Source of the DNA: a phage
Direction: 5' to 3' (one strand)
DNA length: 64,000 nucleotides
Assembly (NCBI GenBank): GCA_024672275.1
Contig: GCA_024672275.1_4536.1
Shown here: in pieces, positions 1 through 12,760 of the stretch
Layout of the letters: each line of letters opens with the position of its first letter
How positions within the stretch are numbered: the first letter of the stretch is position 1
Translations under genes and position numbers: made by a program
Notes under the pieces: generated by a model
The model's input: the letters and a program-made list of their open reading frames with translations, nothing else
Databases searched by the model: none
Told to the model about the DNA's origin: nothing

Positions 1-34
1 AAAAAAACATCATTCATCACCTGGAGTTAAAATC

Positions 35-232
35 ATGGCAACATTGCACATAGTAGCGAAAGCAGGACAAATCAGCGTCGTGGTAAACGGTTTTACTGAG
101 TTCAGTCATCCCCAGGATGATCATGAAACGGTTTTATCTTTCATTGATTCCCTGTTAGAAATGGGAGTCATTACAGAAGACCAGCACGCTACAAAATGCA
201 AGCGCGTTAATCAAATTGCAGGAATAGAATAA
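35..232 (+). CDS. hypothetical small protein (65 aa)
   Basis: ATG at 35 preceded by purine-rich SD-like tract; same strand as following gene array; no recognisable motif. Confidence 0.45.
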   Translation: MATLHIVAKAGQISVVVNGFTEFSHPQDDHETVLSFIDSLLEMGVITEDQHATKCKRVNQIAGIE

Positions 233-238
233 AAAGTA

Positions 239-296
239 TTGACAACAAACAACAACCTGATAAGATGTATCACGTAGGGCGGCAATGGTGCCGCTC
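239..296 (+). promoter_or_regulatory. sigma70/sigA-type promoter + 5'-proximal GC hairpin cassette
   Basis: TTGACA 239-244, 16-nt spacer, TGn-TAAGAT 261-266, conserved CACGTAGGGCGG box, hairpin GCGGC/GCCGC 277-296 (20-mer TAGGGCGGCAATGGTGCCGC), 23 nt before ATG 320. Confidence 0.7.
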
Positions 297-319
297 ACAA
301 CAGAAGAGAGATTATAATC

Positions 320-592
320 ATGGCATCATATAGCGCAACAATGATCGTAGCTGGCACCACTGGTAAACCTATGAGCGGTGGCGGATCTTTCGCAAATATC
401 AACATTGACGGGCGTTTATCCCTGGACGCAGCGATCACCGTGGCGCGGGAAACATTTAAGAAAGAATGTAAATTCAATAAACAAGATTATCTCGGTTTTG
501 CTATTGAAAAAACCGCGCGCTTTGTTGATTATAAAAGCCCAAAAATGGTTGATACTACACTAAAAGCGCAAGATGTAGCGTTTTTACTTTAA
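320..592 (+). CDS. hypothetical protein (90 aa)
   Basis: ATG 320 directly downstream of promoter-hairpin cassette and purine-rich RBS; ORF track. Confidence 0.6.
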   Translation: MASYSATMIVAGTTGKPMSGGGSFANINIDGRLSLDAAITVARETFKKECKFNKQDYLGFAIEKTARFVDYKSPKMVDTTLKAQDVAFLL

Positions 593-595
593 GGC

Positions 596-651
596 TTGAC
601 ATTAACGAATAATTTGTTTATATGTTACATAAAGCGGGAATAGTTCCCGCT
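596..651 (+). promoter_or_regulatory. sigma70-type promoter + GC hairpin cassette
   Basis: TTGACA 596-601, 17-nt spacer, TATATG 619-624, hairpin AGCGGGAA-TAG-TTCCCGCT 633-651. Confidence 0.65.
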
Positions 652-668
652 ATTTGTAAGGTGGTAGA

Positions 669-926
669 ATGTTTTACATCAAATTAAAAGGTCACGTGAT
701 CGCGTTCAAAGATAACGCTTTTTACAGATTAGCAAAATATGCGTTAATACATCCCCACTATGTTTATATAAGGGGGCGTGATGAAATAAATATCTTTGAT
801 CAAACAACATGCGAAAACATCGAGATCCGCAAGGTTGGCGTACGTGATTATCGTACATCTTTCTACCCTTGCAAGGATTCAGCAAGTCTTTTTAAAGTAT
901 GCCAATTGTTGAAAAAAGGTGGTTAA
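669..926 (+). CDS. hypothetical protein (85 aa)
   Basis: ATG 669 after cassette; RBS GGTGG; ORF track. Confidence 0.6.
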   Translation: MFYIKLKGHVIAFKDNAFYRLAKYALIHPHYVYIRGRDEINIFDQTTCENIEIRKVGVRDYRTSFYPCKDSASLFKVCQLLKKGG

Positions 927-927
927 T

Positions 928-1485
928 ATGGGCCGCGAATATGTGATCCAGTCTTGGGTAAAACATGAAGCAGATGATCCGCGCATCATTCCCAATCATC
1001 TTATCGATGAATCCACGGGATATAGCGGTGAGCAAATAGGTAACAGATTAGCACGTAGTAACGGCAACGTAAAAGCGCGTTATGTGCGCCCTGGTTGGCT
1101 GGCAAATGGTAACGCTGATTTATCCAGTGCGGAAGATGCGAGCGACGGCGCGAAAGATAATCCTTTGTACAAAGTTGATCCGGCTTTTCGTGTCCTGGAT
1201 GAATACCCCAGCAAGATAGCGGCGCTCGATCAGGCCCTGGAAAGTAAGCGCATCACCTGGACCGCTTACAACATGGCAAAAAACGTACTTGATGGTAAAT
1301 TGATTCAAGCTGAAAGAAAATTAGCCAAAATTGCAGCCATAGCCCAGGAGGAAGACGAGGAGACAACGGAAGAGGAAGAGTACGAAGAGATCCCGCCGTT
1401 GTTGTGCGTTGATGCTTTTCCTGATTATCAGCCGACAGAGGAAGAAAAAAGGATCGCACTAGAAAACTTTGAAAATAGTCTTTGA
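928..1485 (+). CDS. hypothetical protein with acidic C-terminal tract (185 aa)
   Basis: Internal ATG 928 with RBS AAAAAGGTGG (track ORF begins at GTG 919); translationally coupled to 669..926. Confidence 0.6.
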   Translation: MGREYVIQSWVKHEADDPRIIPNHLIDESTGYSGEQIGNRLARSNGNVKARYVRPGWLANGNADLSSAEDASDGAKDNPLYKVDPAFRVLDEYPSKIAALDQALESKRITWTAYNMAKNVLDGKLIQAERKLAKIAAIAQEEDEETTEEEEYEEIPPLLCVDAFPDYQPTEEEKRIALENFENSL

Positions 1486-1540
1486 CATATCGCCGCCACT
1501 GGCATAATATTTACCACGTAGGGCGGCAATGGTGCCGCTC
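1482..1540 (+). promoter_or_regulatory. sigma70-type promoter + GC hairpin cassette
   Basis: TTGACA 1482-1487, N17, TAATAT 1505-1510, TTACCACGTAGGGCGG box, exact 20-mer hairpin 1521-1540. Confidence 0.7.
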
Positions 1541-1567
1541 ATAGTGAAATTATGCAAGAGGTTTACA

Positions 1568-1663
1568 ATGATTAATAAAGAAAATAGCTTGACGGTTGGA
1601 ACGATTAACGCTATCATTTTCGCCGTTCCATTTTGGGTTGTAGTAGCGGCTATTATTTTCTAA
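1568..1663 (+). CDS. small hydrophobic peptide (31 aa)
   Basis: ATG 1568 after cassette, RBS AGAGG; predicted single TM helix; below 60-aa ORF-track cutoff. Confidence 0.4.
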   Translation: MINKENSLTVGTINAIIFAVPFWVVVAAIIF

Positions 1664-1672
1664 AAAATATTC

Positions 1673-1733
1673 TTGACAACGTTTTTTAATCTGATAAGAT
1701 GTATCACATAGGGCGGCGGAATACTTCCCCGCC
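1673..1733 (+). promoter_or_regulatory. sigma70-type promoter + GC hairpin cassette
   Basis: TTGACA 1673-1678, N16, TGn-TAAGAT 1695-1700, hairpin GGCGGCGGAA-TAC-TTCCCCGCC 1711-1733. Confidence 0.7.
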
Positions 1734-1754
1734 AAAACAAAAAAGGGTAACACA

Positions 1755-2117
1755 ATGAGCAAGCAAATCAATACTATCATGTTTAATCTGGTATCTTTCC
1801 GCGATGATATGAAAAATTTACCACGTGAAACGGTTGATATTCATGTTTCAGCTTATCGCGCCCTTATTGACATGTTACCGCTAAAACGTGATCAACATGC
1901 CGCTAATATGATGCTTAATGCTATGCTTAAAAAGATGATTCAAACGGATCTCACCCTGGCGTATGAGTATCAAGGGCGCTTATATGCAACTTACAACAAG
2001 GCGGTACCTGGTCTGGGAAGTACCGAAGAGTTGCACGGCTTAAACCTGGATCAAAACACTTGGGATAGTATGCGCCGCGTTATGGTATGGGCTGAAAGCG
2101 GTAAAATTTACGAATAA
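1755..2117 (+). CDS. hypothetical protein (120 aa)
   Basis: ATG 1755 after cassette; ORF track. Confidence 0.6.
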   Translation: MSKQINTIMFNLVSFRDDMKNLPRETVDIHVSAYRALIDMLPLKRDQHAANMMLNAMLKKMIQTDLTLAYEYQGRLYATYNKAVPGLGSTEELHGLNLDQNTWDSMRRVMVWAESGKIYE

Positions 2118-2123
2118 AAACGG

Positions 2124-2183
2124 TTGACACTGTTTAAACTTCTGGTATAGTTTACCACATAGGGCGGGAAGTGGTTTCCCGCC
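2124..2183 (+). promoter_or_regulatory. sigma70-type promoter + GC hairpin cassette
   Basis: TTGACA 2124-2129, N16, TGn-TATAGT 2146-2151, hairpin GGCGGGAA-GTGGT-TTCCCGCC 2162-2183. Confidence 0.7.
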
Positions 2184-2205
2184 AACAATGAAAAAGGTTA
2201 TCATC

Positions 2206-2571
2206 ATGGCTATTAATATTAATGTTTCCTCTTATGCTACCCTGGCTGACACGGCTAAAATTGAATTATCCAGCATTGAGGCGGTGCATATTAGCGCCCG
2301 TCGCTGGTTTCAACAGTCCTACGGTAATACATATTTTTCTTTAATGGTTGACGTTGAGATCGGCGGTAAACTGATCGAGGTGGTTAACGTTCCGTTTCAA
2401 TATGGCTATGGTGATCATTTTGATACCGTCGCCCTGGAAGAATTTAGCAAGGTTGTTAATATGGAAGGTAAAGAGTTTTTACGCGGCGCGTATCTTTCCC
2501 GTTTTTGCCGTGACAATGGGATCACTGTATACAGTCATGCAAGCGATGTTAAACGTAAAAAAGATCTATAA
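2206..2571 (+). CDS. hypothetical protein (121 aa)
   Basis: Internal ATG 2206 with RBS AAAAAGG favoured over track start 2188; N-terminus MA.. like neighbouring genes. Confidence 0.55.
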   Translation: MAININVSSYATLADTAKIELSSIEAVHISARRWFQQSYGNTYFSLMVDVEIGGKLIEVVNVPFQYGYGDHFDTVALEEFSKVVNMEGKEFLRGAYLSRFCRDNGITVYSHASDVKRKKDL

Positions 2572-2577
2572 AAAGCA

Positions 2578-2637
2578 TTGACAACACGAATAAAAAGAGT
2601 AAACTGTATTACATAGAGAGCGGGAACACTTCCCGCC
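2578..2637 (+). promoter_or_regulatory. sigma70-type promoter + GC hairpin cassette
   Basis: TTGACA 2578-2583, N16, TAAACT 2600-2605, hairpin GCGGGAA-CAC-TTCCCGC about 2619-2637. Confidence 0.65.
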
Positions 2638-2660
2638 TCACTGAAAAAGAGAGAAAAATC

Positions 2661-2900
2661 ATGGCTAAATCTAAAATGTACAACGGTCACAAAAACAAAA
2701 CTCATTGGAATGTAAGCCTTTGGATTAATAACGATGAATCGTTATACCGGTTGGCCCAAGATTTTATTAACGCTAATGCTAATCGTAATGATGCGGCGCG
2801 GGATATGATGCTTTTTCTGGAACAAACTGGACAAGATAAAACGCCAGACGGTTTCAAATATAGCACTACTGCGATCCGTGCCGCGATGGTTGGAATGTAA
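2661..2900 (+). CDS. hypothetical protein (79 aa)
   Basis: ATG 2661 after cassette and AGAGAG RBS; ORF track. Confidence 0.6.
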   Translation: MAKSKMYNGHKNKTHWNVSLWINNDESLYRLAQDFINANANRNDAARDMMLFLEQTGQDKTPDGFKYSTTAIRAAMVGM

Positions 2901-2909
2901 TAAAAACAG

Positions 2910-2969
2910 TTGACAACGTTTAAAATTAGTGTAAGATGTATCACATAGGGCGGGAAGTGGTTTCCCGCC
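2910..2969 (+). promoter_or_regulatory. sigma70-type promoter + GC hairpin cassette
   Basis: TTGACA 2910-2915, N16, TAAGAT 2932-2937, hairpin identical to 2162-2183 copy (GGCGGGAAGTGGTTTCCCGCC) 2948-2969. Confidence 0.7.
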
Positions 2970-2990
2970 AAAACAGAGAGATTAAAGATT

Positions 2991-3218
2991 ATGGCTATCA
3001 ATATTGTTCGCGTATCCGGCACCGTTGGCACTTCCCAGGTCATTGCAGTTGTAACAAACAAAAAGATTAATGATGTATGTGAAAGCTTGAATAAGTGGGC
3101 TATTGCTAATTTTGGGGAATATGCAAGCGTTGAGTACATCGAATCCTACCAGGTGCCAACCATCAGCCTAACCGATCTCAACGTTGATCGCCTGTTATGC
3201 CTGGATGAATTAATCTGA
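2991..3218 (+). CDS. hypothetical protein (75 aa)
   Basis: ATG 2991 after cassette; ORF track. Confidence 0.6.
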   Translation: MAINIVRVSGTVGTSQVIAVVTNKKINDVCESLNKWAIANFGEYASVEYIESYQVPTISLTDLNVDRLLCLDELI

Positions 3219-3227
3219 AAAAGATTG

Positions 3228-3285
3228 TTGACACCGGAAAGAAAAAGAGTAAACTGTATTACGTAGGGCGGCAATAGTGCCGCTC
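3228..3285 (+). promoter_or_regulatory. sigma70-type promoter + GC hairpin cassette
   Basis: TTGACA 3228-3233, N16, TAAACT 3250-3255, hairpin GGCGGCAATAGTGCCGC (1 mismatch to 20-mer) 3266-3285. Confidence 0.7.
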
Positions 3286-3308
3286 ACAACAGAAGAGAGA
3301 TTATCACG

Positions 3309-3524
3309 ATGGCTAATATCCGTACACTGTTAAAAAATGCAAGTCAAGTTTTATTTTCAGATGACGAGTATTTCAATAAAGACATTACAGGCGTAAAAAA
3401 TCTTAAAGATGTAAAGGATGTGATAGGTATTCGCGGATCTTTACGTAAAGGTGACTACTACGGCAATAAAGTACAATATAAATTAAATCAGTCTTATGAT
3501 TTTACTTTGACAATTATTTCATAA
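3309..3524 (+). CDS. hypothetical protein (71 aa)
   Basis: ATG 3309 after cassette; ORF track. Confidence 0.6.
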   Translation: MANIRTLLKNASQVLFSDDEYFNKDITGVKNLKDVKDVIGIRGSLRKGDYYGNKVQYKLNQSYDFTLTIIS

Positions 3525-3530
3525 AACCGC

Positions 3531-3592
3531 TTGCAATCTTAATAAAATAAAGTAAACTGTATTACATCAAGGCGGCGGAATGGTCCACCGCC
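3531..3592 (+). promoter_or_regulatory. sigma70-type promoter + GC hairpin cassette
   Basis: TTGCAA 3531-3536, N16, TAAACT 3553-3558, hairpin GGCGGCGGAA-TGG-TCCACCGCC 3571-3592. Confidence 0.6.
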
Positions 3593-3616
3593 TAACAAAG
3601 AGAAGAGGAAAATATC

Positions 3617-3784
3617 ATGATCACTTTCGCTACCCGTGAAGCCGCTCGCAACGTTGCACGTAAAGTTAACGCCGCCAACCTGGGTGCTACTTTTAAAGCC
3701 CCGGTGAAAGATGAATCAGGAAAATGGATCTTCCCTGGTCTGCGTCATGCTGACAAGTTAGGTACTTTAAGCCTTAAAAAATAA
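3617..3784 (+). CDS. hypothetical small protein (55 aa)
   Basis: ATG 3617 after cassette, RBS AGAGGAAAA; below ORF-track size cutoff. Confidence 0.5.
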   Translation: MITFATREAARNVARKVNAANLGATFKAPVKDESGKWIFPGLRHADKLGTLSLKK

Positions 3785-3787
3785 TCG

Positions 3788-3824
3788 TTGACTTTTCGTT
3801 ATAGCGCCTTACAATGGGCGCTAT
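3788..3824 (+). promoter_or_regulatory. sigma70-type promoter with palindrome overlapping -10 (operator-like)
   Basis: TTGACT 3788-3793, N16, TACAAT 3810-3815; perfect inverted repeat ATAGCGCC/GGCGCTAT 3801-3824 straddles the -10 instead of lying downstream. Confidence 0.55.
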
Positions 3825-3858
3825 AGAGAAGAGAAACCACTACTAACAAGGAAACATC

Positions 3859-4080
3859 ATGATCACTTTCGCTATTGTCGCCGTTGTTGCTGGTCAGGTT
3901 TACATAAACGATACATTCACCACAGAAGACAAGGCCGCAGGAGACATAACCGCCGTTTACAATGAGTGCAAGGCAGTAGAAAGGATGTTAGCGCCTTGTA
4001 TGCTAATGAGTGAACGCCAGGACGGGATAACAGTATTTACTAACATTGAAACAGGGTACCAAATGGTAGTAACAAAATAA
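3859..4080 (+). CDS. hypothetical protein (73 aa)
   Basis: ATG 3859; ORF track. Confidence 0.6.
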   Translation: MITFAIVAVVAGQVYINDTFTTEDKAAGDITAVYNECKAVERMLAPCMLMSERQDGITVFTNIETGYQMVVTK

Positions 4081-4083
4081 AGC

Positions 4084-4141
4084 TTGACACGGATTTAATT
4101 TTCAGTAAATTGTTACACGTAGGGCGGGAATAGTTCCCGCT
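4084..4141 (+). promoter_or_regulatory. sigma70-type promoter + GC hairpin cassette
   Basis: TTGACA 4084-4089, N16, TAAATT 4106-4111, GTTACACGTAGGGCGG box, hairpin AGCGGGAA-TAG-TTCCCGCT 4121-4141. Confidence 0.7.
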
Positions 4142-4158
4142 AAAAAGAGAGAAAGACC

Positions 4159-4512
4159 ATGAAAGCACAAAATACAATTAAAGAGTACGTCCTTGCCGCT
4201 ATCGATTTTAATGATTACAGTATTACAACCGAAAAAGAGAAGATCGCGGAATTGATGCGCCGTTTTAATTCCGAGTACTGGTACCCTGATAACCAATCAC
4301 GTTTTAATTATAGTATTGTTAAAGCACTTGCATCATGGTTACAAGGTTTGCCATCAGATATCAATATCGCTTTCGAATATTGGGAAATTGATCGCTTGTT
4401 AACATCCTGGGGATACATTAAAGAGAATAGCAGCGATGATAAAATCCAACGAGAAAGGGAAAATTATTGGCTTTATATTGCAGGCGTGATCCTTGCTTGC
4501 TCTTATGAATGA
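4159..4512 (+). CDS. hypothetical protein (117 aa)
   Basis: ATG 4159 after cassette; ORF track. Confidence 0.6.
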   Translation: MKAQNTIKEYVLAAIDFNDYSITTEKEKIAELMRRFNSEYWYPDNQSRFNYSIVKALASWLQGLPSDINIAFEYWEIDRLLTSWGYIKENSSDDKIQRERENYWLYIAGVILACSYE

Positions 4513-4518
4513 TAAACC

Positions 4519-4572
4519 TTGACAATTTTACAAAACAGTTTAAATTAACAATATAGCGGCAATGGTGCCGCT
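4519..4572 (+). promoter_or_regulatory. sigma70-type promoter + GC hairpin cassette
   Basis: TTGACA 4519-4524, N16, TAAATT 4541-4546, hairpin AGCGGCAATGGTGCCGCT 4555-4572. Confidence 0.65.
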
Positions 4573-4591
4573 CATATGAAGAGGAAACAAA

Positions 4592-4738
4592 ATGAATACA
4601 TCTAATCGCGCAGAAAAAATTCAATCTTCCAAGATCCGCAAAGCCTGGAACGAGGAAGTGATCCGCAAAGGCGACAAGCGCAATAAAACAAAGCGCGGGA
4701 AGAGTGACAAATATAATTGGATGGATTTAGAGGATTAA
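4592..4738 (+). CDS. small basic protein (48 aa, K/R-rich)
   Basis: ATG 4592 after cassette; RBS AGAGGAAA; below ORF-track cutoff. Confidence 0.45.
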   Translation: MNTSNRAEKIQSSKIRKAWNEEVIRKGDKRNKTKRGKSDKYNWMDLED

Positions 4739-4744
4739 CATAAC

Positions 4745-4772
4745 AAGGGCGCACCAAGCGCCCTTTCTTTTT
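4745..4772 (+). terminator. rho-independent terminator
   Basis: Hairpin AGGGCGC-ACCAA-GCGCCCT followed by TTTCTTTTT; identical copy at 10451-10479. Confidence 0.7.
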
Positions 4773-4793
4773 ACATGTAGAGGATAAACAAAA

Positions 4794-4979
4794 ATGACTT
4801 TAAACGAGCTTAAAACAGCCTACAGCGCAACATTAAAAATAGCCGTGCGCTACCGTGACGAATACGGTTTTATTGCGCAGGGCGTGATCCTGGGCTTTTC
4901 TGACGATGGTTTGATCTATGTTGATGCACATCATAATAAGGTAAAACCTGAAAACGTCATTAGCATAAAATATCTTTAA
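4794..4979 (+). CDS. hypothetical protein (61 aa)
   Basis: ATG 4794 with RBS AGAGGA; ORF track. Confidence 0.5.
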   Translation: MTLNELKTAYSATLKIAVRYRDEYGFIAQGVILGFSDDGLIYVDAHHNKVKPENVISIKYL

Positions 4980-4985
4980 AAGTGG

Positions 4986-5045
4986 TTGACACCATAACTG
5001 GACCTGTTAAACTGTATTACATCAGGCGGGGAATAGTTCTCCACC
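4986..5045 (+). promoter_or_regulatory. sigma70-type promoter + GC hairpin cassette
   Basis: TTGACA 4986-4991, N16, TGn-TAAACT 5008-5013, imperfect hairpin GGCGGGGA-ATAGT-TCTCCACC 5025-5045. Confidence 0.6.
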
Positions 5046-5064
5046 ATACAAAAAGGTAAATATT

Positions 5065-5271
5065 ATGATCACCGCAAAACAAGAGAAAATCATTATCGAC
5101 GTTGCAGCCGTTGCCGCTATTGCTATTATTGGATCTTATTATGATACCCGTTTCCCGTCGGCTATGCATGAGGTCGCCGCCGTTGCATCAGTTGGCGTAC
5201 TGTTTTACGTTGGTAAACGCTATTTATCACCAATGATTAACAAGCTGACACCGTGGAAAAATAAAGGTTGA
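5065..5271 (+). CDS. hypothetical membrane protein (68 aa)
   Basis: ATG 5065; hydrophobic segment IIIDVAAVAAIAIIG; ORF track. Confidence 0.55.
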   Translation: MITAKQEKIIIDVAAVAAIAIIGSYYDTRFPSAMHEVAAVASVGVLFYVGKRYLSPMINKLTPWKNKG

Positions 5272-5325
5272 TCCTGTTTTATATTGTGTTATAGTTATCG
5301 TGTAGGGCGGCAATGGTGCCGCGCC
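5268..5325 (+). promoter_or_regulatory. sigma70-type promoter + GC hairpin cassette
   Basis: TTGATC 5268-5273, N16, TATAGT 5290-5295, exact 20-mer hairpin 5305-5322. Confidence 0.6.
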
Positions 5326-5342
5326 CTTTTGAGGATGCAATC

Positions 5343-5627
5343 ATGAGTAAAGCTAACACCGTGCTAATGTTTTCCCTGATTAATGATCCCGCTTACTTGT
5401 CCAACATGACGCAGGACGGTAACACATTAACGGCAACATTCACCAATAAGCTTGACCGGGTGATCATCGTCTCACTGAAAACAGTTAGTAAAGGCTTTTA
5501 CTCGTTAGCTTATCATTGGATCACCGATACCGATGAGACAAGCCAGGACTATAGCGCCCCTTTCCCTGAATCAATGGCACGGGAGATCATCGCCGCCGTT
5601 GTAAATGATGGTTTGTTTACTGCATAA
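5343..5627 (+). CDS. hypothetical protein (94 aa)
   Basis: Internal ATG 5343 with RBS GAGGAT; track start 5313 lies inside the promoter hairpin. Confidence 0.55.
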   Translation: MSKANTVLMFSLINDPAYLSNMTQDGNTLTATFTNKLDRVIIVSLKTVSKGFYSLAYHWITDTDETSQDYSAPFPESMAREIIAAVVNDGLFTA

Positions 5628-5644
5628 AATAATTTAGAAAAAGG

Positions 5645-5701
5645 CTTGCAATCATTTTGAGATAGTGTATATTTAATTCATAGGGCGGCGGGAATAGTTC
5701 C
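5645..5701 (+). promoter_or_regulatory. sigma70-type promoter + GC hairpin cassette
   Basis: TTGCAA 5645-5650, N16, TATATT 5667-5672, hairpin GGGAA-TAG-TTCCC within GGGCGGCGGGAATAGTTCCC 5682-5701. Confidence 0.55.
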
Positions 5702-5725
5702 CAAAGCAAACGAGAGGATTACACG

Positions 5726-5845
5726 ATGAGCAAGTACACAGTAGAATACACGGTAGAAAATCCGGCAGTATCCGAAGGTAAAAAGATGACATTTGCCATC
5801 AGTATAATCGCTTTCGTTGTCACTATCTTATCAATCATCTTATAA
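5726..5845 (+). CDS. small hydrophobic peptide (39 aa)
   Basis: ATG 5726 with RBS GAGAGGA; C-terminal TM helix; below ORF-track cutoff. Confidence 0.45.
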   Translation: MSKYTVEYTVENPAVSEGKKMTFAISIIAFVVTILSIIL

Positions 5846-5855
5846 GGTACATACC

Positions 5856-6017
5856 ATGAAAACAGCAGACATTATCAAAGAGATCGCCCTTGCCGCTGGT
5901 GTTGAAGTCGAGGAAGTGATCGCGCTCAATCTTACAGAAAACGATCTGCGCAACTATGAAGCGGAAAGCGTGAAAGCAAGCGGCGCGGTCCTGGTATATG
6001 ATCCGGCTAACAAGTAA
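5856..6017 (+). CDS. hypothetical small protein (53 aa)
   Basis: Internal ATG 5856 of track ORF 5817..6017; follows stop of previous peptide. Confidence 0.45.
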   Translation: MKTADIIKEIALAAGVEVEEVIALNLTENDLRNYEAESVKASGAVLVYDPANK

Positions 6018-6026
6018 GGGGATAAC

Positions 6027-6137
6027 ATGAATCCGAAAGATATGCAAGCATGGAAAGGGTACGACGATCTAAGCGCCTTGCGCAATAAGTCAAGCCGTAA
6101 CTTTAGACGGTTGGAAGCAAAGAAAAAGAAAAAATAG
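6027..6137 (+). CDS. hypothetical small basic protein (36 aa)
   Basis: ATG 6027 with RBS AAGGGG; ends TAG immediately before next promoter. Confidence 0.4.
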   Translation: MNPKDMQAWKGYDDLSALRNKSSRNFRRLEAKKKKK

Positions 6138-6138
6138 T

Positions 6139-6196
6139 TTGACAAGTCCGCCTAGTCTGATAATATATATCTTGTAGGGCGGCAATGGTGCCGCTC
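6139..6196 (+). promoter_or_regulatory. sigma70-type promoter + GC hairpin cassette
   Basis: TTGACA 6139-6144, N16, TGn-TAATAT 6161-6166, exact 20-mer hairpin 6177-6196. Confidence 0.7.
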
Positions 6197-6215
6197 ACAA
6201 GAAGAGAGAAAAATT

Positions 6216-6500
6216 ATGAAAATCACAAAAAGCCTAACTAATTATGCAGCACGTCGCGGATTATGTTTAACCGTTGAAAACTTAGGGAAAGAAGACTTTT
6301 TGTGTTTTTGGGAGCTTGAAAACGATTGCGAGTGGATGTTTTCCTATTCTATCTGCGAAGATCAAAACGGTTGTTTGTTAACCTGGCGCGGTAATATCTA
6401 TTTACCGGAAGAAATTAAAGAAGAGTTACCAGGTACGATCATGACAGAGAGACAGCTTAAGGAAGTGATCAATTTTGTAGGGCAAAACATTAAAAAATAA
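6216..6500 (+). CDS. hypothetical protein (94 aa)
   Basis: ATG 6216 after cassette; ORF track. Confidence 0.6.
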   Translation: MKITKSLTNYAARRGLCLTVENLGKEDFLCFWELENDCEWMFSYSICEDQNGCLLTWRGNIYLPEEIKEELPGTIMTERQLKEVINFVGQNIKK

Positions 6501-6501
6501 T

Positions 6502-6564
6502 TTGACAGTAGGCAAACAACGTAGTAAAGTTTATTACATAGAGCGGCGGAATGGTCCACCGCTC
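6502..6564 (+). promoter_or_regulatory. sigma70-type promoter + GC hairpin cassette
   Basis: TTGACA 6502-6507, N17, TAAAGT 6525-6530, hairpin GAGCGGCGGAA-TGG-TCCACCGCTC 6541-6564. Confidence 0.65.
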
Positions 6565-6585
6565 ACAACAGAAGAGAAACAAATC

Positions 6586-6756
6586 ATGATCCCGACTATG
6601 TTTTATGTATCGCGCAAAGGTCACAATATTTTTTGGTCTGAAGATTTAAATGAAGCTATGACGTTTGCCCGTGATCGTGTTGCTATCGGTGGCGTTAACA
6701 TCACCGTAACCGATGAAAATGGCATTGAATACTATAACGGCGACGATGAAGAATAA
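6586..6756 (+). CDS. hypothetical small protein (56 aa)
   Basis: Internal ATG 6586 downstream of hairpin and AGAAGAGA RBS; track start 6502 is the TTG inside the -35 box. Confidence 0.55.
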   Translation: MIPTMFYVSRKGHNIFWSEDLNEAMTFARDRVAIGGVNITVTDENGIEYYNGDDEE

Positions 6757-6763
6757 TTAATGA

Positions 6764-6784
6764 GGCGGGGGAGTATTCCCCGCC
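6764..6784 (+). promoter_or_regulatory. GC hairpin of cassette type without recognisable promoter
   Basis: Hairpin GGCGGGGGAG-TAT-TCCCCGCC 20 nt upstream of ATG 6804; no -35/-10 found upstream. Confidence 0.45.
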
Positions 6785-6803
6785 GTCAATAAAGAGGTAA
6801 ATC

Positions 6804-7073
6804 ATGAAAATATCATTGGACGTTGCAATCAAGGCCATCGAGTCCGGTTACATCCTGGTAAAAGATGATAAGGCTAAAATAGTGCATCATGTTAACAAGG
6901 AAACAGGCGAAAGCATGATCACATATAAAGCCGCCTACTTTCTCCAATCAGTAGCAGATCCGCGCGTACAACGCCAGGTTACGGCGACTATTGCTAAAAA
7001 ATTATGTGCTTTACAGGGTGCAAGTTTTAACGAGATCGCCCCGTGTTTTGAGTGGTCAAGCTTGAAAAAATAA
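6804..7073 (+). CDS. hypothetical protein (89 aa)
   Basis: ATG 6804 with RBS AAAGAGG; ORF track. Confidence 0.6.
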   Translation: MKISLDVAIKAIESGYILVKDDKAKIVHHVNKETGESMITYKAAYFLQSVADPRVQRQVTATIAKKLCALQGASFNEIAPCFEWSSLKK

Positions 7074-7074
7074 T

Positions 7075-7136
7075 TTGACAACAATTATAAATCGGGTAGA
7101 ATGTATTTCGTAGGGCGGGGCAATAAGGCAACGCCC
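7075..7136 (+). promoter_or_regulatory. sigma70-type promoter + GC hairpin cassette
   Basis: TTGACA 7075-7080, N16, TAGAAT 7097-7102, hairpin GGGCG..CGCCC 7113-7136. Confidence 0.6.
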
Positions 7137-7154
7137 ATTAATGAGGGTAGAATC

Positions 7155-7259
7155 ATGTTAGAGAAAATTTTCACGGTTGTAATAGTGGGCCTGGCGTTAT
7201 CGGTTGGAGTGGTTGCAACTATGGCTAATATGATCCTATCTTCCCACGGTATCGGTTAA
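7155..7259 (+). CDS. small hydrophobic peptide (34 aa)
   Basis: ATG 7155 with RBS GAGGG; predicted TM helix. Confidence 0.45.
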   Translation: MLEKIFTVVIVGLALSVGVVATMANMILSSHGIG

Positions 7260-7269
7260 GGTGAAACAA

Positions 7270-7431
7270 ATGATCACGAACAAAACAGGCAAAACGGAAT
7301 TTTTACGCGGCTTACAAGTTGGTAAGCCTGAGATCTGGCATTGCACGAAGTCCGCGCATAATGAAATGAAAGATTTTACCGCTACTTTACAACGTGTTAA
7401 AATATCTATCACACAGAAAAAGCCTTGTTAG
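7270..7431 (+). CDS. hypothetical small protein (53 aa)
   Basis: ATG 7270 with RBS AAGGTG; below ORF-track cutoff. Confidence 0.4.
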   Translation: MITNKTGKTEFLRGLQVGKPEIWHCTKSAHNEMKDFTATLQRVKISITQKKPC

Positions 7432-7480
7432 TAGTAGAAAACGAGATCCCGCAAACTATTATTATTGTCGAGCGTACAGC

Positions 7481-7867
7481 ATGAAAACAGAAATCATTAT
7501 TGAAATCATCAACGGCTATAAAGAAGCCTTTATTTTTGCTGAATCAGCAAGGGATCATGAAGGTAATTTTATTGATAACTTAGACGATTATGATTTTTCT
7601 CCTAGCGCGGACGAACGGATCGCCCAGGATGTAACAGCCTTTATTAATGCTAATCTTGCCGCTATCTCTGAGGCAATGAGCGACGGCGCAACAGCCAACC
7701 AGATCGGGAATGATTTACATTTTACCCGTAACGGTCACGGCGTAGGCTTTTGGGATCGCCCTGAGATATACACCACTAACACGGCGAACCGCCTAACCAA
7801 TGCAGCTAAGTTTATGCCGAACGTGTCGGCTTACATTGGTGAAGATAATTTGATTTATATTGAATAA
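7481..7867 (+). CDS. hypothetical protein (128 aa)
   Basis: Internal ATG 7481 of track ORF 7394..7867 (track start is GTG inside previous ORF); start uncertain, weak RBS. Confidence 0.5.
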   Translation: MKTEIIIEIINGYKEAFIFAESARDHEGNFIDNLDDYDFSPSADERIAQDVTAFINANLAAISEAMSDGATANQIGNDLHFTRNGHGVGFWDRPEIYTTNTANRLTNAAKFMPNVSAYIGEDNLIYIE

Positions 7868-7873
7868 AAAGTA

Positions 7874-7931
7874 TTGACACAGATCGCCAGTGTGCTAATA
7901 TTTACCACGTAGGGCGGCAATGGTGCCGCTC
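7874..7931 (+). promoter_or_regulatory. sigma70-type promoter + GC hairpin cassette
   Basis: TTGACA 7874-7879, N16, TGn-TAATAT 7896-7901, TTACCACGTAGGGCGG box, exact 20-mer hairpin 7912-7931. Confidence 0.7.
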
Positions 7932-7950
7932 ACTGTAAAAGGTAAACATT

Positions 7951-8142
7951 ATGAAAACTATCACCTATCTGGAATCGAATAACATGTTTTTTGCGCCCGT
8001 TGATGAAATCATCGAAGCATTAAACAACGAGGAAGGGATCAAAGGTTTATCTTATAGCCAACTTTTAGGAATGGTTGCAGCAAATGTAGAGCTTGCTTAC
8101 TATGTTGAAAATTTTGATGAAGCTGTAATCTTTACAAAATAA
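7951..8142 (+). CDS. hypothetical protein (63 aa)
   Basis: ATG 7951 after cassette; ORF track. Confidence 0.6.
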   Translation: MKTITYLESNNMFFAPVDEIIEALNNEEGIKGLSYSQLLGMVAANVELAYYVENFDEAVIFTK

Positions 8143-8145
8143 TCC

Positions 8146-8202
8146 TTGATCTAATCTCTTAAATAACTTATATTTAATGCGTAGGGCGGCAATGGTGCCG
8201 CC
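8146..8202 (+). promoter_or_regulatory. sigma70-type promoter + GC hairpin cassette
   Basis: TTGATC 8146-8151, N17, TATATT 8169-8174, exact 20-mer hairpin 8183-8202. Confidence 0.6.
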
Positions 8203-8220
8203 GATAATGAGGAAAGTAAA

Positions 8221-8520
8221 ATGGAAACTATCGCTATTGTTACCGTAGAAAAACTGGTTGTTGGTGATGTATTCGCGTTAATGGTGCCTAACAGCAGCAA
8301 GCTGGGCGCTTATGAAGTAATGGATCATAAAAATGAATCATTTGGCGACGGTTGCACAATGGCGGTAAAATCTTTAAAGGATGGAATTATCCGCCAGGCT
8401 AACTGGCACAAAGGGAATCAAGTCGGTTTAATATCAGCTAATTTCTTGCCAGAAGAGCAAACATTAGATCAACTATCAGGCGGTAAGACGTTAGCCGAAC
8501 TACTGGAAACAGCGATCTAA
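8221..8520 (+). CDS. hypothetical protein (99 aa)
   Basis: ATG 8221 with RBS GAGGAAAG; ORF track. Confidence 0.6.
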   Translation: METIAIVTVEKLVVGDVFALMVPNSSKLGAYEVMDHKNESFGDGCTMAVKSLKDGIIRQANWHKGNQVGLISANFLPEEQTLDQLSGGKTLAELLETAI

Positions 8521-8527
8521 TCGACAA

Positions 8528-8545
8528 GGGGGCGGCAACGCCCCC
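8528..8545 (+). promoter_or_regulatory. GC hairpin with GNRA-type loop, no recognisable promoter
   Basis: GGGGGCG-GCAA-CGCCCCC 30 nt upstream of ATG 8575. Confidence 0.4.
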
Positions 8546-8574
8546 ATTAAACGCAATAGAAAGAGGATAGACAC

Positions 8575-8859
8575 ATGAAAAAGATGATCGCAGTAGTTGC
8601 CCTGGTTGTTGGTATTAACGCGCCTGTAATGGCGAAAGAGTTGCCAGAATCCATCACGTTAACCGATATTAACGCAGTGAACCGGATCGGTGTTAATTAT
8701 CGCCTATGCCTTGCCGCTAAAACTTTCCAGGACGGCACAACAGAGTACTACGGATTCGAGGGTATCCGCTGCGGTGAGCTTTCACGCGACCTTAAGGAAG
8801 ATCCAGACCTTGAGGCCATACCGATGACCGTAAACGGTAAAGCCCAGGTAAACCGCTAA
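8575..8859 (+). CDS. secreted/periplasmic small protein (94 aa)
   Basis: N-terminal Sec-type signal peptide MKKMIAVVALVVGINAPVMA; RBS AGAGGA. Confidence 0.6.
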   Translation: MKKMIAVVALVVGINAPVMAKELPESITLTDINAVNRIGVNYRLCLAAKTFQDGTTEYYGFEGIRCGELSRDLKEDPDLEAIPMTVNGKAQVNR

Positions 8860-8882
8860 CCATGAGAAAGGTAATCATCACA

Positions 8883-8996
8883 ATGGGGATCGTAGTAGCA
8901 ACGCTGGCGCTAATCCCCTTCCTGATTAAATATGTGCTAATCAGTGTTGTTCTGGTAGTCAGTGACCTATTGGAAACGGTTGGCACCTGGTTTTAA
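8883..8996 (+). CDS. small hydrophobic peptide (37 aa)
   Basis: ATG 8883 with RBS AGAAAGG; alternative start ATG 8862; one predicted TM helix. Confidence 0.4.
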   Translation: MGIVVATLALIPFLIKYVLISVVLVVSDLLETVGTWF

Positions 8997-9008
8997 GGAG
9001 TAATAAAA

Positions 9009-9200
9009 ATGAATGCAGAACAAGTTAGAAAGGTATTAGCAGCGTTGCGGTATCACAACCATAGCAAGGTAAAGAATGATCCTGACTATGTGGATTCAAG
9101 CCTGGAAGAAGACACATTGCAAGCTATAAGCCATATGCAAAAATTGCTTAAGCGTATGACAGAAAAGAATAGATCTGATTATATAGGTGACGAGATCTAA
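9009..9200 (+). CDS. hypothetical protein (63 aa)
   Basis: ATG 9009 with RBS AAGGAG; ORF track. Confidence 0.55.
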   Translation: MNAEQVRKVLAALRYHNHSKVKNDPDYVDSSLEEDTLQAISHMQKLLKRMTEKNRSDYIGDEI

Positions 9201-9206
9201 AATAGC

Positions 9207-9264
9207 TTGCACAATGTATCGGATAGTGTAAGATGTATCACGTAGGGCGGCAATGGTGCCGCCC
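9207..9264 (+). promoter_or_regulatory. sigma70-type promoter + GC hairpin cassette
   Basis: TTGCAC 9207-9212, N16, TAAGAT 9229-9234, exact 20-mer hairpin 9245-9264. Confidence 0.65.
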
Positions 9265-9284
9265 ACTGAAAAAGGTAAATCATC

Positions 9285-9473
9285 ATGGCAATCGTAAAAG
9301 CAAAAGATCTCAAGGTCGGTATGGAACTGGACACGGGCGCGATGGTAGTGACCGTTATTATCATCGATGCGGATCTCGTAGAGCTTGAATTACAGGTTTA
9401 TGATCCTGATTGCGGGGAGGTTGACTTTTTATCTTTCCAGGAGAACGCCGAGGAAACGTATAACATCAACTAA
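9285..9473 (+). CDS. hypothetical protein (62 aa)
   Basis: ATG 9285 after cassette; ORF track. Confidence 0.6.
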   Translation: MAIVKAKDLKVGMELDTGAMVVTVIIIDADLVELELQVYDPDCGEVDFLSFQENAEETYNIN

Positions 9474-9492
9474 AACACTGATAAAAAACAAG

Positions 9493-9521
9493 GTTGACGA
9501 AAGTCAGCCTTTTTGTTATGC
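9493..9521 (+). promoter_or_regulatory. putative sigma70-type promoter followed by long structured leader
   Basis: TTGACG 9493-9498, N17, TATGCT 9516-9521; about 200-nt leader with GC-rich element GGGCGGCACTGGCAACGGGGGAGG before ATG 9729. Confidence 0.35.
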
Positions 9522-9728
9522 TTATTGAACGGGCGGCACTGGCAACGGGGGAGGTAATCACCGGAAGACCCCGCTATATATTGATAGCTAACATCTATCA
9601 AACAACAAAACATCAAAGAGATAAACTATCAAATCTTTACAATTCTACCTATTGACCAATAAATCACAACAGTTTAATATTGTTTTTAGAGGTTAAAATA
9701 TTCCCCAAACGAAAACAGGAAAAAGAAA

Positions 9729-9965
9729 ATGAAAGAAGTCATGATCCTCAAAAAATCACCTATTTTACGTGGCGGTTTTATCGCTTACTCTGATGATTTG
9801 TTAATTGCAACAGTTGCAAAAATACTAAAATCAGAAGATGACAGTAAAAACGGCGTTTATCGTATCTGTTTCACCCGTGGAAAATTACAAGGTAAGATCG
9901 CTTATGCCTTTGATTTACAAGATGTAAACGATAAAATATGCGCTGTTATTGATTATGCAAAATAG
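9729..9965 (+). CDS. hypothetical protein (78 aa)
   Basis: ATG 9729 with RBS ACAGGAAAAAG; ORF track. Confidence 0.55.
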   Translation: MKEVMILKKSPILRGGFIAYSDDLLIATVAKILKSEDDSKNGVYRICFTRGKLQGKIAYAFDLQDVNDKICAVIDYAK

Positions 9966-9977
9966 TTAATTTTCTTA

Positions 9978-10020
9978 TTGACACCGGATCACGCTTGCAT
10001 TATTATTTATCACGTAGGGC
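9978..10020 (+). promoter_or_regulatory. sigma70-type promoter with conserved box but no hairpin
   Basis: TTGACA 9978-9983, N17, TATTAT 10001-10006, conserved TTATCACGTAGGGC box retained but second hairpin arm absent. Confidence 0.6.
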
Positions 10021-10052
10021 AAATCATTTTAAACGGTAAACGAGGAATCACC

Positions 10053-10436
10053 ATGAGCAATATCATCAACCTGGCAGCGACTGTAAACGGTAAAGACTTT
10101 AACGGCGCTGTAGACCGTGATCCTATGTGGTGCTTATCAGTGTTTAAAGGCGACCTGGTTGAAGTTAGAACAACCGAAGGTTATAGCGACGATTATAAAT
10201 GCGAGATCCATTTACATAACTGGTACACGGGTAAAACTTATGCGCTGAATCACGCGTTTATCGGAAAAATCGAATATCGTGAGATGATCGACGAAGAAAC
10301 GGGGCAAGATTTTAGCGAAAACGTTTATATTCGTTCAGAAACATTGGCCGAACGTTTGATCGAGAAAATGAAAGCAAAAAATAAAATTAATTTATCTCAT
10401 TGGATTGATATAACAAACGATCCAGCTTATCAATAA
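10053..10436 (+). CDS. hypothetical protein (127 aa)
   Basis: Internal ATG 10053 with RBS ACGAGG; track start 9978 is the TTG of the -35 box. Confidence 0.6.
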   Translation: MSNIINLAATVNGKDFNGAVDRDPMWCLSVFKGDLVEVRTTEGYSDDYKCEIHLHNWYTGKTYALNHAFIGKIEYREMIDEETGQDFSENVYIRSETLAERLIEKMKAKNKINLSHWIDITNDPAYQ

Positions 10437-10450
10437 ATAACATTTCATAC

Positions 10451-10479
10451 CAGGGCGCACCAAGCGCCCTTTCTTTTTG
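10451..10479 (+). terminator. rho-independent terminator
   Basis: AGGGCGC-ACCAA-GCGCCCT + TTTCTTTTT; identical to 4745-4772; closes the + strand early-like array. Confidence 0.7.
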
Positions 10480-12057
10480 CCCGAACAATGTTGATAGCTT
10501 TCGCCTATGAAAAACCGACACAGAACAAAATTGAATAAATCGCGGTATCGAGCTAATCAACCATTAAACGAATAACCATACCTCCCAGGGTAACAGGCTG
10601 TTAGAGAGCCATTTATAGCGGTTAAAATCGATCAACAACCAACAACAAACCATCAAAAACACCCTTTTACCTCCTTTCTAGTGCAATGATAACCATTATC
10701 ATCTATACATGATTATATATGCAATATAAGTGCATAACTATAATGTTGATAATAGTTCGCAACAACTAACTAACCAACAACCTAAAACAATAAGCAAACT
10801 AATTATAATCAAAGGAATAATAGCAAGATGATTGATAACGACAAACAATCAAACCATGATGAATACTAAGCAAGATAACGATAACACGACAAAACAACCA
10901 ACTAACGAACAATAACAAACGAAATCATTAAAATAATAACTATTGCCATAATAGTGACTGAATGAATCATTACAAAACGAATCATTCCCAAGATCATCAT
11001 TAGCACGCTATGCCGGACACATAGCGAGCTAATAATAAGCCAACTACACCCCAACAATCATAACCATCGGTGATGGTTATTTCTTGTTACTGCGTAGCTT
11101 GCAATAATTGCAAGCGTAATGACGCTTACACTTATTGCGCTGGCTTATTATTAGCATTATATGTAATTACCAAGATCATAACATTAGCGCAATAACAATA
11201 ATCATTGTAATTGTTACAAGATGAGATTATTAGCATGGCAATAATTATTGGGGGGCAATGGGAGGATGATTATCATCATTCCGATACATTGCACACTATG
11301 CACATAATAGAATAAAAGTCAATAATTTTGGGGCGAAATGTTACCGCCACGGGCGGGAATGTTGAGCACTAAGAAAAGAGATAAACCTTAATCATGGGGG
11401 CGTAAATATCCGAGGATTGCCAACGGCGATCCGGTAGGATGTTGAGCAAGTTTTCTTAAACGTAAATAAAATCAGAAAATTCTTGATTTATTTTAGTTTT
11501 TATGTTAATAAACGTTTAAATAATAATCATTCTCATATGAATAATAGTCCGTCTGTCATGCGCGGGATCAGTTGACATTGTTCCGTCATATGATGAAGTT
11601 GCCAAACCATTGATAAATAAGCGTTTGTGTGATTTATAATCAAGTGGCCCACCTTGTCGCTATGTTGGCATGAGCCTTGCATAAGTCATTGAATACGAAT
11701 GATAATTATTCTCATTCGCATGATATTTGGGAATTGTCGCTGCGTGGACCTGACGGCCCGAAAATTCGCGTTAAGCACTTCTTACGTATGCGCCATGATT
11801 TTTGCCATATCATATTGATTCTATTAGATATTCTTGCCATGATTGCCATGAAACAGGGTGTGTCGAAATAATCTCTCCCCGTAGATATTTTGGGTTACTT
11901 TTTATACAAGAGTGGGGTGTCAAAAATAATCGATATATATGGGATAATTAATAGGAATCCCCTATGGTAATTCGATTGTAATTGCCGAAGATTGATCGTA
12001 TGATGTTGGTGATTGATGATTGCCATGAAAGATGGCTAACGATGAGAGGAGATTGTC
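10480..12057. other. ORF-free, strand-skewed, repeat-rich spacer between gene modules
   Basis: No credible ORF; 10600-11000 is A+C-rich with CAACAA/AAC repeats; ATTAGC/AATAAT repeats 10980-11260; direct repeats GGAATGTTGAGCA (11358, 11428), TTGCCATGAAA and GTGTC(G/A)AAA..AATC (11838-11870, 11913-12030). Confidence 0.5.
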
Positions 12058-12402
12058 ATGCAAGAGAGTAAAAATGTTCCCTTGAGTAGCTTACGTCTAA
12101 TGAAGTTTTACAAAGCTTGGCTTGCTGGTGAGGTAGAAGGTCACACAACGAGTGGTTTGTGCATATGTCTGATTAAGTATGTAGAGGGAACATACCCTGA
12201 TGAACTGTTACCTCGTCTACAACAGGAGATGAAATCACAGTTTATTAGTGCAGGATTGGATTACAATTTCCCGTTTAATGAAGGTGGTTATGAAGAATAC
12301 ACCTTCGAACATAAAAAACTTATTTGCCATAAAAACAAACATCGTATACAATGGGTGCTAGATAGAATTCAGGATTACGAAGGAGAGAAAAATGACAAAT
12401 AG
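12058..12402 (+). CDS. paralog family member 1 (FY..W / GLC.CL / PF / WV.DR motifs), 114 aa
   Basis: RBS GAGAGGAG + ATG; shares conserved motif set with 12392, 17031, 20375, 23213, 24518. Confidence 0.65.
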   Translation: MQESKNVPLSSLRLMKFYKAWLAGEVEGHTTSGLCICLIKYVEGTYPDELLPRLQQEMKSQFISAGLDYNFPFNEGGYEEYTFEHKKLICHKNKHRIQWVLDRIQDYEGEKNDK

Positions 12403-12760
12403 TATTCCGTTGAGCAGTGCAACATTGCTTCGCTTCTATAAAGCATGGATTGCCAACTATCCTGCAATGAATCGCACAACGAGTGGCTTATGTGGTTGTC
12501 TGGTAGATTATGTAAATGATTTTGTTGGTGAGACAACTAGAGAAGAAGATAGAAGATGGCGGGATAGTTTGTTAGACCGTTTGAAATATGAAATGAGGAA
12601 ACAATTTACATGTGCAGGGCTGGACTACAATCTTCCGTTCAATGCAGATTGCATGGATTACCTTTCAGAGTGTATAAACTTGGCGTGTCATACCAACACG
12701 TTACGTCTTCAATGGGTGAAAGATCGCATTGAAGATGCAAATAATTCTTGCATTGAATAA
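12392..12760 (+). CDS. paralog family member 2, 122 aa
   Basis: RBS GAAGGAGAG + ATG overlapping previous gene; motifs LRFYKAW, GLCGCL, PFN, LQWVKDR. Confidence 0.65.
   Translation: MTNSIPLSSATLLRFYKAWIANYPAMNRTTSGLCGCLVDYVNDFVGETTREEDRRWRDSLLDRLKYEMRKQFTCAGLDYNLPFNADCMDYLSECINLACHTNTLRLQWVKDRIEDANNSCIE

Follow-up and report, generated by a model that had tools for sequence, protein, structure and literature searches.

Results

The locus

The stretch of DNA analysed here, 64,000 nucleotides of a phage genome and called the window below, carries about 19 promoter cassettes in its first 10 kb, as counted by looser box matching together with a promoter scan. The last of these, which we call P1, stands directly before a gene for a T4 gp30.8-like protein (Table 1). 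By its sequence P1 is a predicted sigma-70 promoter, with TTGACA and TATTAT hexamers separated by 17 bp and lying 46 nt 5' of the ATG at 10053; it matches the consensus at 11 of 12 positions and ranks among the three best promoters in a consensus scan of 1-12500. A preliminary description of this DNA held that a conserved box is kept immediately after the -10 of the promoter at 9978, and this proved correct, because the pattern that defines the box in the cassette family, [G/T]TAYCACRTAGGGC directly after the -10, is matched exactly at 10007-10020 by TTATCACGTAGGGC. The box is followed by AAATCATTTTAAACGG, and the full 3' stretch up to the start codon reads AAATCATTTTAAACGGTAAACGAGGAATCACC. 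Transcription is predicted to start at G10014, since the invariant pyrimidine-purine step falls there, 8 nt after the -10.

The element that follows the gp30.8 gene is an intrinsic terminator, and the unit is therefore monocistronic. When the gp30.8 protein was used in tblastn, 95 records were found at 60% identity or more and 954 below 60%, the sampled rows of the latter all being T4-like. A near-identical terminator (AGGGCGCACCAAGCGCCCT and a T-run) is also present at 4745-4775, inside the early array, where it was flagged on both strands.

The region is 92-97% identical to genomes of the Stephanstirmvirinae, among them the Phapecoctavirus phages 536P1 and ZCKP1 and the Justusliebigvirus phages alia, UAB_1 and phi92, and on this similarity we assign the window to a phAPEC8/phi92-like phage of that subfamily. 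Upstream of P1, positions 9652-9977 form a 326-bp module shared by the window, 536P1, UAB_1 and ETEC-TG and absent in ZCKP1, ECML-183-2 and arall. It contains a promoter (TTGACC...TAATAT) with neither box nor hairpin and a 78-aa ORF (9729-9965), and the indel is flanked by a direct repeat, TATTGAC, that is the -35 of both promoters. Downstream of the terminator, about 1.6 kb (10481-12057) is devoid of a convincing ORF. The UAB_1 counterpart of this stretch extends into the direct terminal repeat annotated at the right end, and the same repeat mapped on the window gave a weak 55-bp match at 11681-11729; a physical genome end may lie nearby.

Table 1. Features of P1, its gene and the early cassettes; positions are those of the window.
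Feature	Position	Strand	Basis or remark
-35 hexamer TTGACA of P1	9978-9983	+	Sequence, consensus scan
17-bp spacer CCGGATCACGCTTGCAT, signature of P1	9984-10000	+	Homologous spacer in relatives, ahead of differing downstream modules
-10 hexamer TATTAT	10001-10006	+	Sequence, consensus scan
Box TTATCACGTAGGGC	10007-10020	+	Exact match; predicted discriminator (10007-10013) and first transcribed bases (10014-10020)
Invariant pyrimidine-purine step C/G	10013-10014	+	Predicted transcription start, G10014
A/U-rich unstructured leader	10021-10052	+	Shine-Dalgarno (SD) GAGGA at 10042-10046
Gene for 127-aa Phage_30_8 (T4 gp30.8-like) protein	10053-10436	+	Pfam PF06019, E = 1.1e-28; PHROG 1507
Intrinsic terminator AGGGCGCACCAAGCGCCCT and T-run	10452-10480	+	Closes the gp30.8 unit
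About 18 sister cassettes	239-9275	+	Order: A-rich tract, -35, -10, box, hairpin, SD, ATG
Box starts of sister cassettes	267, 1511, 1701, 2152, 2938, 3256, 4112, 5295, 5673, 6167, 6531, 7103, 7902, 8174, 9235	+	
Degenerate boxes	After promoters at 2578, 4519, 4986	+	

The early cassette family

With up to two mismatches allowed, the box has 10 matches in the window, all of them on the + strand and between 267 and 10020, where 0.33 would be expected; not one of 100 shuffles reached 10 matches, and the box is not a chance pattern. In promoter context it is confined, within the 64 kb, to the early array. When 16 cassettes were aligned on the box it carried more information per column than the -10 hexamer: T1, T8, A9, G10, G12 and C13 were found in 16/16 cassettes and A2 and G11 in 15/16, while all 16 had a pyrimidine (C or T) in column 6 and a purine (G or A) in column 7. 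The spacers between -35 and -10 were unconserved across the same 16 cassettes, and the conservation is therefore a mosaic rather than the outcome of homogenisation of whole cassettes. In the A-rich tract of the sisters, A occupies columns -38, -36, -35 and -34 in 13-14 of the 16. Unlike the sister cassettes, P1 has no such tract 5' of its -35 (its columns -38 to -34 read ATTTT and agree with the sisters at -38 only). P1, which also has no hairpin and shares with the family just its two hexamers and the box, is atypical among the cassettes.

The (GTA)GGGC that ends the box forms, in the sister cassettes, the 5' base of an RNA hairpin, to which GGGC and often also GT contribute, and in about half of them the GU of the box also pairs with an AC after the stem. 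The minimum free energy (MFE) of the hairpin is -12 to -18 kcal/mol in most sisters; weaker examples are those at 5673 (-7.8) and after the degenerate boxes at 4519 (-11.4) and 4986 (-9.5 kcal/mol). Pairing at the base of the stem may be G.U (GGGC/GCTC), G-C (GGGC/GCCC at 9235, where the hairpin is GGCAATGGTGCCGCTCAC) or A-U (GAGC/GCTC at 6531), and stems of at least six different sequences are found at this one position with pairing kept. Because stem bases and stem sequences vary while the pairing stays, the sister hairpins act at the RNA level, the covariation here being argued from individual folds and not from a formal count. RNAalifold found no structure in a MAFFT alignment of 18 hairpins, in which stems of differing length were misaligned, and a search of 1-12500 with the Rfam covariance models (E <= 1) gave no match.

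The sequences after the cassette hairpins are CACAAC, CAAAAC and similar. We rejected a reading of these hairpins as intrinsic terminators, because all but the one at 5295 lack a T-run, unlike the structures at 4745 and 10452, and also a reading as RNase III sites, because the stems are only 8-9 bp long. The sole cassette hairpin with a T-run behind it, at 5295-5335 (GGGCGGCAATGGTGCCGCGCCCTTTT), could be a leader hairpin and a terminator. A second promoter class may be represented by two further promoters, at 3788-3830 and 12324-12366, in which TACAATGGG[C/T]GCTA...AGA is shared 3' of the -10 and both box and hairpin are missing (MFE 0.0).

The P1 leader

Every cassette was folded as RNA over 45 nt from the box onward. 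The P1 RNA (10012-10056) had an MFE of -1.3 kcal/mol and an empty centroid structure, and it folded worse than 197 of 200 dinucleotide shuffles (z = +1.67). Two sister cassettes, put through the same shuffle test, gave -14.8 and -17.8 kcal/mol (z = -2.1 and -3.0). The earlier statement that the sequence after the box cannot pair into a stem is thus confirmed. P1 has neither the G+C-rich hairpin with a 5' arm from the box GGGC that marks the family nor the hairpin expected of a 5'-terminal stem-loop stabiliser, and the gp30.8 leader at 10021-10052 appears to be held free of structure. What has to be revised is the picture of box and hairpin as two adjacent elements: the stem is indeed absent, but GGGC belongs to the stem. 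Because the GGGC of the sister cassettes is itself the stem base, the break in P1 sits inside the 5' arm.

Module junctions among relatives

When 9940-10140 was used as a blastn query against 50,697 phage records, 141 of them were matched, in discrete classes. In one class the match begins at about 9976, at the -35; in a second, the phi92 type, at about 10004, on the boundary between -10 and box; in a third it stops with the final base of the box, 10020; and in a fourth it begins at about 10042, with the SD and start codon. As one class of relatives matches only from about 9976, the -35 of P1 is itself a module junction.

P1 and its box, with a spacer that varies in 9 of 17 columns among relatives, are found ahead of several partners. 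The hairpin-less leader and gp30.8 follow in the window, 536P1, ZCKP1, ECML-183-2, UAB_1, arall and WPEC1; the hairpin GGGCGAGCAATACAGCAAGCCC (-11.3 kcal/mol, z = -4.4) and phAPEC8_0016 in phAPEC8, ETEC-TG, nepoznato and Ro121c4YLVW; the hairpin GGCGGGAARTGGTTTCCCGC and a phi92 gp247-like gene in ESCO8, PD06, A150 and phi92; and yet another sequence in LTH01. Hairpins are clear in two of these at least three other downstream modules, the phAPEC8 and ESCO8 types. The hairpin-less leader with gp30.8 has, for its part, four upstream partners: P1, a second promoter of the phi92 type (P2), the Mydovirus form of P1, and a 5673-type cassette in phage SF1-1. P2, found in phi92, ESCO8, PD06 and A150, has a -10 and box (TATAGTTATCGTGTAGGGC) equal to those of the 5295 cassette of the window, and ESCO8 carries both units in tandem, in the order P1, box, hairpin, gp247, P2, box, leader, gp30.8. 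In Shigella phage SF1-1 (PQ571307, 1461-1896) a copy of the 5673 cassette, hairpin included, is fused to gp30.8 through a crossover in the shared ATGAGCAA.

Between the 5673 cassette and gp30.8 the window has some 4.4 kb, or about eight cassettes, that are missing at this position in SF1-1. The SF1-1 record labels gp30.8 a 'head decoration protein' and a 48-aa ORF a 'distal tail protein Dit', both apparently errors of annotation. Several records named 'Campylobacter phage' (e.g., A150, MG065639, UNVERIFIED) belong to Justusliebigvirus and share about 90% identity with coliphages, and the host given is doubtful.

The preliminary description spoke of a cassette that had lost its hairpin, and it named intact hairpins in related genomes as the sign of a simple recent decay. 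Such hairpins do exist after the same promoter and box, but the relatives that have them carry another gene there, so that the sign was found in the literal sense and not as evidence of decay. The P1 leader, moreover, retains no likeness to any hairpin arm and folds worse than its shuffles. It is kept in every sampled genome with the gp30.8 gene except SF1-1 and is conserved with that gene over three genera and two subfamilies. We thus consider it highly improbable that a hairpin decayed here recently, or that the box pairs instead with another downstream segment. Because the leader is without hairpin similarity and the hairpin-bearing relatives have a different gene, the join of box to leader is, on the sequences compared, a junction formed by recombination at the box's 3' edge.

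A scan of IMG/VR for TTATCNNGTAGGGCAA, a pattern with 14 specified bases, gave matches of which most of those listed are probably due to chance; among the matches listed, seven had TTGAC at the -35 position and three were relevant, these being KNP2, a Mydovirus-like variant and a contig with a different gene. That contig has on its - strand (box at 2193, counted on the reverse complement) a Mydovirus-like P1 with its box and a hairpin-less leader ahead of a different gene (ATGTACATCATTAAAGGC...), and the leader can therefore be re-assorted at the SD. These pattern-selected sequences were left out of the conservation test described below.

Conservation of the hairpin-less form and of its box

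The hairpin-less form occurs in Phapecoctavirus, Justusliebigvirus and Mydovirus, that is, in three genera of two subfamilies. In the Mydovirus phages KNP2, Mydo, K18PH07C1 and Seu621 (Vequintavirinae) there is an orthologous unit, at about 72% identity, made up of a homologous P1 spacer, TTATCTCGTAGGGC, a diverged leader that is again hairpin-less (-3.4 kcal/mol, z = -0.4) and the gene. Judged from this distribution, the hairpin-less join is old and stably inherited. Positions 1-50 kb of Mydo, early region included, hold a single box, the one before gp30.8; since no other box is present there, gene conversion from sisters within that stretch cannot explain it.

For a test of conservation, 11 hairpin-less orthologs were taken by BLAST and anchored on the coding sequence, not selected for the box; a 4-base insertion in WPEC1, which can be placed inside or just after the box, was put after it. 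One of the 14 box columns varied, compared with 30 of 49 in spacer and leader (Fisher one-sided p = 3e-4) and 20 of the first 60 coding bases (p = 0.044), in a sample that consists mainly of two clades, the Stephanstirmvirinae and Mydovirus, with minor variants, so that columns are not independent evolutionary samples. The column that varied in the orthologs also varies among the sister cassettes. Because of its dependence on mainly two clades the test is suggestive, not conclusive, and it suggests a sequence-level role of the box that is separable from the hairpin. The earlier proposal that the primary sequence around +1 matters without the hairpin is supported as far as constraint goes (1/14 against 30/49 columns), on comparison of genomes.

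One could suppose instead that the box is a passive scar left upstream of the crossover and kept by descent, of use at most as microhomology and with no role in gp30.8 expression. Module junctions do fall on the edges of the box (10004 and 10020) as on other short elements (-35, SD/ATG), and most orthologs within the Stephanstirmvirinae are more than 90% identical, which implies that little time has elapsed within the group. Between Mydovirus and the Stephanstirmvirinae, however, some 60% of the spacer and leader columns have diverged as against a single column of the box, variation within the box is confined to columns 5 and 6, which vary among the sister cassettes too, and P2 of phi92, a different promoter, also keeps a box before the same leader. 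We hold a scar to be rather unlikely, if a shade less so than the next possibility.

That possibility is a dedicated trans-acting factor, a phage repressor or activator that binds DNA at +1 and switches the early set, to which the hairpin would be an accessory. The restriction of the box, in promoter context, to the early array of the 64-kb window would fit such a factor, as would a conservation higher than that of the hexamers contacted by polymerase and the retention of the box where there is no hairpin. The box has, however, no operator-type dyad symmetry or repeat, no candidate factor was found, and the one box in 1-50 kb of Mydo would imply a regulator for one promoter. As the sole Mydo box precedes gp30.8, the gp30.8 protein was itself considered as the factor, but self-regulation is unlikely: P1, the box and sister cassettes are present in an estimated 46 genomes that have no gp30.8 at 60% identity or more (the 141 blastn records less the 95 with gp30.8, SF1-1 and records of the phi92 type having no P1 beside the gene). 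On balance we regard a dedicated factor as unlikely.

Discussion

We propose that P1 is an early promoter for host sigma-70 polymerase that drives a monocistronic gp30.8-family gene, and that its box is kept for steps at the level of the polymerase while also serving as microhomology for exchange; to our minds the chances that this is right are about even. Host sigma-70 polymerase would use the -35 and -10 and start at G10014, with the first half of the box (TTATCAC) as the discriminator up to the pyrimidine-purine step and the second half (GTAGGGC) as the first seven transcribed bases. GTAGGGC would nucleate, in the sisters, the G+C-rich hairpin, which would be 5'-terminal if the start corresponds to G10014 and would probably shield the 5' end of the mRNA from entry by RppH and RNase E. 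P1 would be a recombinational chimera in which the box has been joined directly to an unusually open leader. There the DNA of the box would most likely be needed for the formation or stability of the open complex, for the choice of start site or for promoter escape, and the conserved elements of the cassettes would provide the microhomologies by which modules are exchanged. The single box in 1-50 kb of Mydo points to a factor common to all hosts, which is RNA polymerase.

Two points bear on how far this proposal reaches. The likeness of the box to optimal discriminator or CRE sequences is too slight to predict an effect, and a promoter-level role alone leaves the invariant GGGC unexplained at P1, GGGC being needed for pairing in the sisters. 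In the searchable literature on these phages we found no data on start sites, promoter activity or half-lives. The proposal does make a prediction: the gp30.8 mRNA, with an accessible 5' end and leader, would be readily translated and would decay faster than its neighbours.

In E. coli, as in the ompA and papA leaders, stem-loops at the 5' terminus are known to make mRNAs more stable (Emory et al. 1992; Bouvet & Belasco 1992; both cited in PMC3997798). By analogy, the sister hairpins would resemble these stabilisers, as they lie 0-3 nt from the predicted 5' end, and the GU/AC pairing seen in about half of the sisters would pair the very 5' end. P1 differs in having no hairpin and would be the unprotected exception.

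A second comparison is with the early promoters of phage T5, in which the sequence around and after +1 influences later steps of initiation. These promoters reportedly have conserved initial transcribed or downstream regions (Gentz & Bujard 1985; Kammerer et al. 1986), and their initial transcribed sequences are reported to affect promoter clearance (Kammerer et al. 1986). The likeness to the present cassettes is that of a very strong phage sigma-70 family sharing sequence around and after +1. The sequences themselves are unrelated, however, the T5 elements being A/T-rich and without a hairpin.

The closest parallel is with the PeSLs, repeated intergenic cassettes of about 100 bp in the T4-like phages RB49/phi1, PST and nt-1, in which a stem-loop between the -35 and -10, or over the -10, terminates or attenuates transcription from upstream, and in which recombination between neighbouring cassettes yields encapsidated mini-circles (Arbiol et al. 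2010, PMC2839356; Comeau et al. 2014, PMC4122927). As in PeSLs, an AT-rich tract, a strong sigma-70 promoter and a G+C-rich stem-loop precede the SD and ATG of small accessory genes, the cassettes cluster in a plastic early region, and indel or replacement junctions between related genomes fall inside them. Exchange of the PeSL type is seen here in the four classes of junction at cassette elements, the alternative partners, the 326-bp indel and the SF1-1 deletion. Several differences separate the two systems. PeSLs belong to T4-like phages and the present cassettes to the Stephanstirmvirinae; the stem-loop lies here 3' of the predicted +1 and not in the promoter, with a T-run only at 5295; no invariant +1 box has been reported for PeSLs; and P1 has no stem-loop at all. 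With these differences, the cassettes are a PeSL-like family outside the T4-like phages.

The cassette repeat had been noticed before, for in the phAPEC8 record (JX561091) 20 nt at 232-251, comprising the box GTAGGGC and one cassette hairpin, are annotated as a 'putative promoter determined with PHIRE', and the feature just before them is a 'host dependent promoter determined with MEME'. That annotation describes a phage-specific promoter and not a +1 box with a leader hairpin, and it makes no mention of the P1 copy, the hairpin-less copies or the junctions. In the literature on phAPEC8, phi92, rV5 and the Stephanstirmvirinae we found only generic promoter counts and no description of the cassettes.

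A bolder possibility, which we think unlikely, is that the box acts as a portable cis-element in its own right, that either a specific factor or a specific property of RNA polymerase reads it, that it defines the whole Stephanstirmvirinae early regulon independently of the hairpin, and that it is also a preferred site of crossover, through which promoters, leaders and genes are re-assorted. If this were true, the cassettes would constitute a second, mechanistically distinct class of mobile regulatory cassette beside the PeSLs, and P1 with gp30.8 would be a natural separation-of-function allele. A box that works alone would also be a compact, transferable determinant of early-promoter behaviour (start site, escape or shut-off) in a large group of coliphages that are candidates for therapy, and box and optional 5' hairpin together would make up a natural two-part kit in which transcription and mRNA stability are tuned separately. 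More generally, our results extend the modular shuffling mediated by cassettes, known from T4-like phages, to an unrelated subfamily of myoviruses, in which the points of exchange fall on each short conserved promoter element.
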